64,000 bases of DNA, taken from Myxococcota bacterium. Its GTDB lineage: Bacteria; Myxococcota_A; SURF-8; G963663525. Each line of letters begins with the position of its first letter. The first letter of the stretch is position 1. Under the pieces are notes generated by a model. That model saw only the letters and a program-made list of their open reading frames with translations, had not been told where the DNA came from and did not search any database. The position numbers and the translations under genes were made by a program. This document shows positions 18,693 through 20,560 of this stretch, piece by piece. The DNA is taken from the NCBI GenBank assembly GCA_963676915.2, contig CAXXVK010000053.1, positions 134,746 to 198,745 on the forward strand. Reading direction: 5' to 3'.

Positions 18693-18933
18693 CCTTTAAA
18701 AAGAAACATATGAGCAAAGAAAAACAGCCAGGAAATGGATGAACTTTTTGCAGTTTTATATTTGTGCTTTTGGCTGTTGATTTTTGTTGTTTCTTTGGTT
18801 CTATTAACAGCTAAAGTCAAACAATTCTCAATCTTAAAGCAAGAATATAGATCTTTTCTTTTCATCCCCTGGAAAACACTGACTTTTCTTTTTGCGGCTG
18901 TTGGCCTTAACGCTGTAGCGACTGTGATTGAAG

Positions 18934-19866
18934 TCAAGCAAATTTTGGTTTCCACTCCTCCCTATTTTTAAGCATAGTATTCATGATAACGAGGAGTTTC
19001 CGCATAGATGCGATGACGGTGGTCATTTTGGGTTTACCCATAGTGACGTGCCTTTGATTGAAGGCTCGAATCACAGGGTTGTGCTGGATGGCGGACAAAG
19101 TGGGCATGTACAGTTGGGTGCGCACTTGCCTTCTTCCACCACCGGTCATGCGTTTGCCTTTGAACGCGCCGCTATCTCGATTGAACGGAGCGACGCCGAC
19201 GAGAGCGGCGATTTGGCGCCGGTTGTATTCACCCAGTTCGGGCAAATCAACGATCAGGCAGTGAGCCGTGAGCGAACCGATACCGGGAACGGTCATGAGG
19301 CATCGAACCTTTTCGGAGAGCGATTCGTTGCGTTGAACGATGCTCCGTATCGCCTCCTCGATGCTTTCGACGTTCTTGTCCAGAGCTTTGATGATCGTTT
19401 TCAGACTGCGTGCGACAAGCTTGTCGTCGGCGTGTTCCACACGGTTTTTCTCTGCTGTTCGCATATCGATCAGTTGCCTTCGGCGAGCCGCAAGGGCTTT
19501 GAGTTTCAGACTCTCGGGAGTGATTTTTCGCATGTGACGGGGCTGGACCAGTGCGGCGTAGCGAGCGATGAGGTTGGCGTCGATGCGATCGGTTTTCGCT
19601 GAAAGTCCAAGAGACTGAGCGAAGGCGCGAATACGTCGTGGATTGACGACGGCCACATTGAAATTCCGTTTTTGCAGGAACTGGGCCAGGCGGTTTTCGT
19701 AGCCACCGGTGGATTCCATGGCGACCAGATCTGGCGCGGCGTTGCTGATTTTACGAAACGCTTTTTTCATTCCTGCTGGGGTGTACTCAAAAGTCTCGAC
19801 GGTTCGGGACGAACCTACGGCCAGATCGAACGAAAGCTTGCTGATGTCGATTCCGACGGTTTCCAT
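18934..19866 (-). CDS. IS110 DEDD recombinase/transposase
   Basis: VGIDISK, MESTGGY, KTDRIDA, VPGIG, GVAP..RDSG motifs. Confidence 0.93.
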
Positions 19867-19879
19867 CTCGTTCACCCTT

Positions 19880-20038
19880 CCTTGCTCATGCGGGCTCATC
19901 GGTGTACAATGGCCCTAGCGACTGTTCGGGCTTCCCGGACAAAACGGGCGGCGGATCCAGCTACACACGGGTTGAAAAACCCAAGGTCGGGACGATCTCG
20001 CCGCCCGATGCTCCCTGGGCGGCCGCCCAGGGAGCATC
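19880..20038 (-). ncRNA. Predicted bridge RNA of the IS621-like element
   Basis: 5' hairpin GATGCTCCCTGGGC/GCCCAGGGAGCATC; target loop closed by CGGGCGGCG/CGCCGCCCG; donor guide ACAGTCGCT identical to the element's own end; boundaries approximate. Confidence 0.8.
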
Positions 20039-20560
20039 ACCATTTTACCACAACAAACACCTGAAAACTGACACAATAAAGATCATACAAGGTCCGTTTA
20101 CCGGTGATCCAACGTGGGACTTTGCCACCGCAAGTTTCATGTCCGTATTCACGTTCTTGACTGCCCCCTGGACGGTCGGGACTCTATACAGGTCACTACG
20201 TGGCAAAGAAGGGTTCTTGCAAGTCTACGTAGCGATTTGCCTTTGGCTGTTTTCTGCAAGTTGGTCTTATGATCTTTACTTACTAATCCGCGATGGTTAT
20301 TACCCTGTAACGTGGTCATCCAATTTACTTGCAAGCTCCATACTGTACTTGTGCGCAGGACTGTTTTGGAATCTTACATTTAAGTCGGGTAGAGGTGTCC
20401 ACTTCGCTTTCACCGAACAAGGTTGGCCACAAATGGAATCCGAACAAGCATTCCATCGCGTTTTCTGGTACGCTTTGCCATTCATGATTCTTGTTTCTGC
20501 AATGATTTTGTATTTTCTGCTTCCTGTTCGGTGGCAGTAATCACAGGTCGGGTCGTTTGC

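Follow-up and report, generated by a model that had tools for sequence, protein, structure and literature searches.

The locus described here raises the question of why an insertion sequence (IS) whose guide RNA spells one DNA target is found in another. The window (the whole stretch of DNA analysed, 64,000 nucleotides of contig CAXXVK010000053.1 from a Myxococcota bacterium, assembly GCA_963676915.2) includes an IS110-family element on the minus strand (18917-20091; 1173 bp counting one CT) that interrupts a gene for a membrane protein. The preferred answer, to which a probability of about 0.9 is attached, is that a recently active IS110 element moves by bridge-RNA-guided recombination, with five copies placed at the end of a host repetitive extragenic palindrome (REP) and the window copy at a near-cognate site.

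The genome to which the window belongs (G000; 5.18 Mb, 74 contigs, 90.8% complete) has six full-length copies of the element (~100% identity), one 345-bp right-end fragment and one 56-bp left-end relic. The boundaries are identical in all six full copies. Read on the minus strand of the window, the left junction consists of the flank AACGGAC (20098-20092), the core CT (20091-20090) and the left end TGTATGATC (starting at 20089); the right junction consists of the right end ACAGTCG (18925-18919), the core CT (18918-18917) and the right flank ACAG. Terminal inverted repeats are absent, the 2-bp CT core is found at both junctions of the six copies, and the left end, measured from TGTAT up to the start codon, is 223 nt long. 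Flanks of the form ...CCCGAC-CT-AC... surround five of the six full copies (the preceding base is G in three and A in two), whereas the window copy is the sole full copy elsewhere, at AACGGAC-CT-ACAG. The original prediction, which was made from the letters of the window, had named beforehand the location of the other copies as its refuting test; five of six prove to lie in CCCGACCTAC sites. The left ends (element positions 1-226) are identical across the six full copies. The differences among these copies amount to four substitutions and two small insertions, and since the latter disrupt the reading frame of two copies, the recombinase gene is intact in four of the six. The near-complete identity of the copies indicates that insertion was recent.

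The recombinase of the window copy is intact at 310 aa, as had been read from its open reading frame, and is composed of the DEDD_Tnp_IS110 (PF01548, 5.3e-26) and Transposase_20 (PF02371, 6e-18) domains of Pfam. The protein is further matched by the NCBIfam model NF033542 'IS110 family RNA-guided transposase' (218 bits, cut-off 140) and by the solved structures of ISCro4 (PDB 9t56; E 8.1e-36 over residues 3-301) and IS621 (2.5e-30, near full length), all of which bear out the assignment to IS621-like bridge-RNA elements. Residues D7, E51, D93, D96 and S232 align with D11, E60, D102, D105 and S241 of IS621 (8wt6_A), where the S232/S241 column match holds if the numbering of the 8wt6_A chain is offset by 2 residues because of a tag. 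These IS621 residues are described as a composite active site (Hiraizumi et al. 2024, PMC11208158). At window position 19601 (minus strand) a C is found only in the stray copy and specifies S89, four residues before the catalytic D93, with L89 in the other five copies. The serine is taken as a private, derived change, as the leucine state is also found in the related element of other public runs; no significance is asserted for its nearness to D93. Close relatives of the element do occur in other samples, as exemplified by the coded public runs X2 and X3 of another study, in which the element is ~95% identical (59 differences/1122 nt) and the flanks are different.

The 210 nt that precede the recombinase gene fold at -96.4 kcal/mol (z -4.35 compared to shuffles) into a 5' stem-loop, a target-binding loop and a donor-binding loop (Table 1). 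The left donor guide (LDG), which in DNA letters is ACAGTCGCT at 19925-19917 of the minus strand, is identical to the right end plus core at nine of nine positions, just as the original prediction had it. The right donor guide (RDG) had been placed at TACA (19903-19906), which instead lies in the apical loop of the donor hairpin; the RDG is AUGAGCAAG at 19889-19881, a segment that follows the hairpin GGGC...GCCC at a conserved position and pairs with CT-TG..AT of the left end. Such discontiguous pairing of nine RNA bases with seven donor bases is described by Durrant et al. (2024, PMC11208160).

In the target loop, the left target guide (LTG), (U)CCCGACCU (19992-19984), and the right target guide (RTG), GUGUGUAG (19968-19961), together spell CCCGAC-CT-ACACAC; the corresponding minus-strand DNA is TCCCGACCT at 19992-19984 and TGTAG at 19965-19961. 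The first U of the LTG agrees with none of the five on-target sites and with one of 133 free sites, and it is part of a conserved GAUCGU present in 12 of 18 relatives. Position 1 thus looks like scaffold, which makes the effective count of mismatches at the stray site 2/8 rather than 3/9. Under the handshake rule of Hiraizumi et al. (2024, PMC11208158), position 7 of one DNA is paired by the base just 3' of the right guide for the other DNA (RTG or RDG). By analogy, the C (19960) 3' of the RTG is likely the handshake base for donor position 7 (G), and the G (19880) 3' of the RDG is likely that for target position 7 (C). The relative L028, in which donor position 7 is A and the corresponding base 3' of the RTG is U, fits this rule.

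The fold and the guides were compared with those of relatives, for which one representative genome per species was searched and 55 loci encoding relatives (32-51% identity) were collected. A covariance model (R1), built from the window sequence and a hand-drawn structure, matches over its full length, immediately before the gene, at 18 of these loci. Over the 24 model pairs of the 18 relatives, 96.6% of 409 cells are standard pairs, compared to 30-50% after displacement of the partners by 1-3 columns; compensatory changes are seen in 17 of the 24 pairs, and the observed measures are reached by 0/500 shuffles. Compensatory pairs are distributed as 11/12 in helix 1, 2/5 in helix 2 and two each in helices 3 and 4 (e.g., UCC/GGA in the donor loop of L026). 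The alignment behind these counts was fitted to the model and is hence biased toward the structure. The same helices are seen by eye in an independent MAFFT alignment of 17 left ends; RNAalifold recovered only 3 pairs from this plain alignment, a poor recovery that is ascribed to stems of differing length and to gaps that broke the register. An Rfam 15 scan of 18500-20500 (E up to 1) matched no bridge-RNA family and included a chance-level miRNA match. The same region has a match to sX15 (RF02234), a small RNA of Xanthomonadaceae, at 30.2 bits (gathering score 55, E 0.014; window 19870-20016, plus strand), on the strand opposite the bridge RNA; sX15 may be derived from an IS110 left end or the match may be due to chance.

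Guide and DNA change together among the relatives. In 17 of 18 relatives the aligned LDG 7-mer is identical to the right end of its own element; it comes in five versions (ACAGTCG, ACAGCCG, ACGGTTG, ATAGTCA and ACAGTTG). L025, in which the CAAG of the RDG is replaced by CUAG, has a left end that begins CT-AGTAT. For the target loop, L015, L056, L057, L048 and L035 have an LTG of which 7-8 of 8 positions agree with the left flank. Between the RTG and right flanks, contiguous matches are 5-9 nt long, and covariation is seen in L023, L024, L025 and L048; in these four and in L026 the RTG follows the right flank over 7-9 contiguous nt, non-AC flanks included.

The target that the guides spell is the end of a REP family that is abundant in the host. 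In G000, CCCGACCTAC has 133 free sites, where base composition predicts ~11.5 and the reversed control has 13. Its consensus context, TGTCGGGCAAGAAATTTGCCCGACCTAC, is a hairpin with a 7-bp stem and 9-nt loop, and inverted doublets are visible in many of the listed contexts. Hairpins of the form GTCGGG-N5-25-CCCGAC number 342 strand-reads (commonest length 23 nt), of which 118 are followed by CTAC, the complement of GTAG. A GTAG tag is described as characteristic of REPs (Di Nocera 2013); thus, the REP tag supplies the core of the target (CT) together with the two bases that open its right arm. GUAG is kept at the RTG in 13 of 18 aligned RNAs, and a literature search with supplements and figures outside its scope found no explicit statement that links the conserved RTG to the REP tag. 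Two genes for REP-associated tyrosine transposases (RAYTs) are encoded in G000 (NF047646, 190 and 177 bits, cut-off 80), one with a REP of the target family 158 bp upstream and the other with a REP 1.2 kb downstream. Within the window, CCCGACCTAC at 4485-4494 (minus strand) forms the end of the hairpin GTAGGTCGGGTGAAATCACCCGACCT, the REP-like palindrome at which the target loop had been predicted to aim.

Two partial copies lie near REPs. The 345-bp right-end fragment (C58:1-471, L007; element positions 831-1175, 99% identical) starts 3 nt past a complete REP doublet GTAG...CTAC, and the join lacks a CT core; it could be the result of a deletion, of REPIN insertion into a copy or of an assembly break near the contig start. 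The 56-bp left-end relic (C60:183797-183852, L008; 95% identical) ends just short of the RNA 5' hairpin and is beside a REP, with the core mutated to A-T for C-T, and appears to be an old, decayed on-target insertion.

The window copy itself is a true off-target insertion, as originally proposed, since the orthologous gene reads through the site uninterrupted. This ortholog, from a genome of the same order (G006), encodes 212 aa with the junction ...LNAV-GPFTGD... and, at the DNA level, reads GAATGGGC-CT-ACAGCG with a single CT; a Pfam search with it matched no family. Compared to CCCGAC-CT-ACA, the stray ACGGAC-CT-ACA has two mismatches, both distal to the core, and retains GAC-CT-ACA as an intact 8-mer. 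The free sites of G000 comprise 133 perfect matches to the 10-mer, 255 single-mismatch sites and 1,981 double-mismatch sites, and the corresponding occupancies are 5/138, 0/255 and 1/~1,982. Two sites of the window, at 20545-20552 (ACCCGAC-CT-GT) and 5940-5948 (TCCCGAC-CT-GC), have a perfect left arm and core with the wrong right arm, and both are empty, which is consistent with a strict right guide; the first is only ~450 bp from the stray insertion. The second had been listed in the original prediction as a further match to the guide: TCCCGACCT is indeed present there, but outside any hairpin and followed by GC rather than AC. A match of the donor-half type (in the sense of Xie et al.) was considered for the stray site and set aside, as its left arm agrees with the donor arm ACAGTCG at only 2/7 positions by eye.

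Four other accounts of the stray copy were weighed. The one that survives best, though very unlikely, is that a variant bridge RNA with a guide matching AACGGAC, from a lost or unassembled copy, placed the window copy on target. The genome is 90.8% complete in 74 contigs with further copy fragments on C58 and C60, and left guides do change between related genomes; however, all six assembled copies have identical left ends, no examined relative has such a guide, and the guide would need to have gained and then lost a three-base change, with the standard guide retained in the inserted copy. Less probable again is an assembly artefact, in which the repeat was threaded wrongly into the gene. A six-copy repeat in a draft assembly invites such an error, and none of the public contigs compared spans the left junction beyond 3 nt. 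The right junction is nonetheless bridged (18585-18943) by a 359-nt contig of depth 3.9 (28 for the element), which may share the sample of the assembly, and an erroneous join would not produce a cleanly duplicated CT at a place that agrees with the guides over 8 nt. A third account, that the left flank is secondary and was brought by a later deletion or inversion (recombinase-mediated or homologous) to a copy first inserted in a REP, is highly improbable. Deletions and inversions that involve two sites are reported as rare products of IS621 (Durrant et al. 2024, PMC11208160) and a truncated copy abuts the REP doublet on C58, but the flanks of the window copy are two in-frame halves of one gene, contiguous in the ortholog with exactly one CT, an arrangement that a rearrangement would not restore. 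That the site was perfect when hit and has mutated since is a general possibility that is scarcely credible here, as the flank encodes the conserved GPFT, the ortholog DNA GAATGGGC is likewise not CCCGAC and the ~100% identity of the copies marks the insertion as recent. Thus, the contiguous, in-frame ortholog with its single CT excludes a rearranged flank, a mutated former REP and, for practical purposes, a chimeric join.

Off-target insertion of a REP-directed element is therefore retained, and a route for it can be proposed by analogy with IS621 and ISPpu10. In IS621, the circle is reported to rebuild a promoter across the core that drives the RNA (Durrant et al. 2024, PMC11208160). Here, the joined ends of an excised circle would similarly form a sigma-70 promoter, TTGACT (18937-18932)-17-TATGAT (20087-20082), the predicted motif being present with 10/12 agreement to consensus; TTGAC[A/T]-17-TATnnT at 9/12 or better is found in 12 of the 15 elements with both ends found (window element included). 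From this putative promoter the left end would be transcribed into a ~200-nt RNA (predicted ends near 20075, 5', and 19872, 3') that comprises a 5' hairpin and two internal loops. Of these, the donor loop (ACAGUCGCU and AUGAGCAAG) would bind the circle junction ACAGTCG-CT-TGTAT, the target loop ((U)CCCGACCU and GUGUGUAG) would bind CCCGAC-CT-AC(A) at the GTAG-tagged 3' end of the host REP hairpin, and the DEDD/Ser recombinase would exchange strands at the CT core. For the stray copy, the same machinery is proposed to have acted on AACGGAC-CT-ACAG, where the core-proximal GAC, the core and the right-arm ACA would pair and two informative, distal positions of the left arm would be left unpaired, a mismatch tolerance that is extrapolated from the published systems.

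Several points weigh against this account. The genome has ~1,980 sites at two mismatches, and nothing accounts for the choice of the stray site among them; two distal mismatches also exceed most reported IS621 off-targets. The hairpin at the stray site (-3.7 kcal/mol) is like that of shuffles, compared to ~-11 at four of the five on-target sites (-1.4 at the fifth, on C43, where the stem is decayed). The junction promoter amounts to agreement with the consensus; a promoter scan of the integrated element gave 0 sites, as would follow from a promoter confined to the circle. Part of the stretch is contained in 7 public runs from 2 studies, none of them listed as an RNA run, and the contigs of the four runs compared include neither a circle junction nor an empty-site joint, although contigs lose rare forms; one 'goes back' joint among them is explained by a ~40-nt motif like the end of an IS200 element at 18660-18700 and 20560-20600. 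Among the sister elements described below, two of the G003 insertions (L085 and L098) share a 40-nt left flank and are possibly not independent. Finally, the distant single-copy relatives L026, L054, L022 and L017 lie at sites that match at 4-6 of 8 positions. The three multi-copy genomes may thus understate the frequency of imperfect sites, or some boundaries of these relatives, which were called with an element length required at 1140-1215, may be misread. The left end of L016 is without one T, and its LTG match is 5/8, or 7/8 by eye with the core at CT.

Sister elements bear on how the targeting may have arisen. A DNA search of 40 relatives finds the element lineage in four further genomes, with the RNA region best conserved (78-83% identity) compared to the right end (844-1175; 66-73%), and with 68% identity near full length in G009. 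In G003, eight copies with the left guide UCCCGACCU are all in ...CCCGAC-CT, seven of them then followed by AC and five in a hairpin. In G005, seven of eight copies were examined; with the left guide UCCCAUCCU, all are in gatgggc...GCCCATC-CT-AC hairpins. The one copy examined in G009 has the same guide, UCCCAUCCU, and lies at GCCCATC-CT, and the single copy of G007 has UUCCGACCU (UUCCGAC) and lies at GATCGAC-CT (6/8). Insertions that match their own LTG exactly at positions 2-9 number 21/23 in the five genomes (5/6 in G000, 8/8 in G003, 7/7 in G005, 1/1 in G009 and 0/1 in G007).

The sites that remain free follow the guides in part. For CCCGACCTAC, free sites (reversed control in parentheses) number 133 (13) in G000, 13 (37) in G003, 4 (37) in G005, 23 (33) in G007 and 19 (25) in G009; for CCCATCCTAC, the corresponding numbers are 3 (5), 0 (6), 17 (5), 32 (6) and 41 (5). 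The left guide thus matches a host-enriched REP stem in three of the five genomes (G000, G005 and G009). The exceptions are G003, in which the CCCGAC motif is not enriched, and G007, which is enriched for CCCATCCTAC and whose single copy carries a UUCCGAC guide. In G003 (L080-L100), 13 sites are free and 8 are occupied, such that over a third are filled, compared to under 4% in G000. Among distant relatives with both ends found, the target hairpin is clear (z <= -4) in 4/13; hairpin targeting is common, yet not universal, in this sample of 13.

The donor loop and GUAG are constant across the sister elements of the same order, and the GUAG of the RTG is shared by relatives outside this order as well. 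As these relatives share GUAG and differ in CCCGAC or CCCAUC, and as CCCAUC tracks the REP stem of its hosts, REP targeting is read as lineage-wide and inherited, with the left guide retuned. The REP-end targeting, which the original prediction had called independent, looks inherited with a drifting left guide rather than invented separately; IS621 itself targets ...GGC-CT-AC. A broader proposal, whose chances are judged to be even, is that one element lineage in one order forms a natural retargeting series, in which the donor loop, the scaffold and a GUAG fixed on the RAYT-required tag are kept while two adjacent left-guide bases switch. The element would then be a dedicated REP/RAYT parasite, with strays as raw material for new specificities and knock-outs.

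Table 1. Features of the element, its RNA and the interrupted gene (window positions; guide abbreviations as in the text)
Feature	Position	Strand	Basis
IS110-family IS, both CT core copies included	18917..20091	-	Boundaries common to 6 full-length copies at ~100% identity; single CT in ortholog empty site
Left CT core	20090..20091	-	Element copies; ortholog empty site
Right CT core	18917..18918	-	Element copies; ortholog empty site
Recombinase gene, 310 aa, intact	18934..19866	-	Pfam, NCBIfam and PDB matches; DEDD = D7, E51, D93, D96; Ser = S232
Bridge RNA 5' stem-loop, perfect 14-bp palindrome	20007..20038	-	Fold; self-inverted matches of the element at query 54-85
Target-binding loop (outer stem, internal loop with LTG and RTG, inner hairpin)	19946..20006	-	Covariance model; pair counts
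Donor-binding loop (basal CCC/GGG stem, LDG, hairpin GGGC...GCCC, RDG)	19875..19930	-	Helices 3 and 4
LDG, ACAGUCGCU	19917..19925	-	Equals right end plus core, 9/9
RDG, AUGAGCAAG, 9 nt, discontiguous pairing with CTTGTAT	19881..19889	-	Aligned AU-(1-5 nt)-CAAG in relatives
LTG, UCCCGACCU; informative positions 2-9	19984..19992	-	Equals left flank plus core in 5/6 own copies; changes with flank in relatives
RTG, GUGUGUAG; GUAG part pairs with CT-AC	19961..19968	-	Right-flank matches in relatives
Putative -10 hexamer TATGAT, of a promoter existing only across the circle junction	20082..20087	-	Conserved TAT(G/A)(T/A)T in relatives
Putative -35 hexamer TTGACT in right end, containing the recombinase stop codon	18932..18937	-	17 nt from -10 once ends are joined
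5' part of disrupted host gene (~211-aa membrane protein)	18735..18918	+	69% identical to residues 9-63 of G006 ortholog
3' part of disrupted host gene	20090..20540	+	82% identical to ortholog residues 65-212; same frame without the 1173 bp

The surroundings of the element include other mobile DNA. An IS200-like Y1 transposase gene (PF01797, 2.2e-42; 18079-18531, minus strand), one of three identical copies in the genome, adjoins the element, and a ~40-nt hairpin motif (acaaacgtgaggagcaggatgcgat...) from the end of this IS200-like unit recurs solo past the disrupted gene, which is thus bracketed by 18660-18700 and 20560-20600. Beyond the Y1 gene, 17318-18052 (plus strand) encodes a 244-aa protein with DUF2321, zinc ribbon and DpnII/MboI-type restriction endonuclease domains (PF18742, 2.2e-50). 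A second, unrelated IS110-family gene is found at 45176-46783 (plus strand), with the DEDD domain (87 bits) in a 247-aa frame; this gene is apparently frameshifted, as judged from its reading frames, with the Tnp-like part continuing in another frame.

Bridge recombinases are engineered as genome-writing tools, for which specificity is the main concern, and natural insertions record what a recombinase accepts in cells over evolutionary time. The 23 insertions in five genomes form a small, clean data set, and the agreement of the stray insertion with the maps of IS621 and ISPpu10 in unrelated hosts suggests that the rules are general. The change from CCCGAC to CCCAUC between sisters represents natural retargeting by two adjacent guide substitutions with the donor loop unchanged. 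Bridge RNAs, the targeting of REPs by IS110 elements and the rules for off-targets have already been published, and the known mechanism is unchanged; what is new here is that sister elements of the same order carry CCCGAC or CCCAUC guides, with CCCAUC matched to the REP stem of its hosts. The stray copy had also been put forward as a natural record of mismatch tolerance, and in this it stands, as the mismatches are distal and the core-proximal positions are intact; such tolerance had, however, already been mapped by experiment.

Among the closest known systems is IS621 of Escherichia coli (PMC11208160, PMC11208158). As described in these reports, IS621 shares with the window element both protein domains and the catalytic DEDD and Ser columns, the CT core and a nearly identical donor (ACAGTCG-CT-TGTAT here, ACAGTAT-CT-TGTAT in IS621), and a left-end RNA with a 5' hairpin, target and donor loops, a 9-nt LDG and a 9-on-7 discontiguous RDG. 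The promoter that IS621 rebuilds across the circle junction has a predicted counterpart here in the sequence motif of the joined ends. A further likeness is a target at the ...CT-AC end of a host REP, where IS621 inserts at ATCAGGC-CT-AC with one natural mismatch to its own guide. By contrast, the two recombinases are distant (phmmer E 2.5e-30, roughly a third identical by eye), and the window element has another host lineage, the REP stem CCCGAC and a longer left end. The RTG, given as 4 nt in IS621, can pair over 7-9 nt in some members of the window clade. The best match among solved structures is ISCro4 (PDB 9t56), compared by protein alignment alone.

ISPpu10/ISPpu9 of Pseudomonas putida (PMC1525189) resemble the window element in insertion pattern, with IS110 copies all at one end of REP hairpins, and the left target of ISPpu10 is described as the 3' arm of the REP stem (Na et al. 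2026, 10.64898/2026.03.19.712850). The ISPpu10 insertions reported in that work are all on target, whereas here one of six lies in a gene without a stem-loop; the two systems are likened by description. Elements of the IS1111 group that use a seekRNA (e.g., ISPa11 and ISEc11; PMC13604230) belong to the same superfamily of RNA-guided DEDD recombinases, and some are described as REP-targeting. In the window element, the RNA precedes the gene and lies within the left end, which is the layout of the IS110 group. The IS1111 group differs in the arrangement of its guide RNA and in the order of the matches.

Published tolerance data accommodate the stray site. For IS621, single mismatches are reported as poorly tolerated, and most off-targets retain the CT core and have either 1-2 mismatches or long k-mers in common (PMC11208160). 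According to a preprint (Xie et al.), recombination can proceed when the core and a single arm are matched. In the ISPpu10 map, distal LTG positions tolerate mismatches while the core-adjacent position and the RTG are strict, and the REP stem-loop raises efficiency and is not required (Na et al. 2026, 10.64898/2026.03.19.712850). Thus, as far as these accounts describe them, the stray site fits the tolerance results of IS621, Xie et al. and ISPpu10, and serves as their natural confirmation rather than as a new rule.

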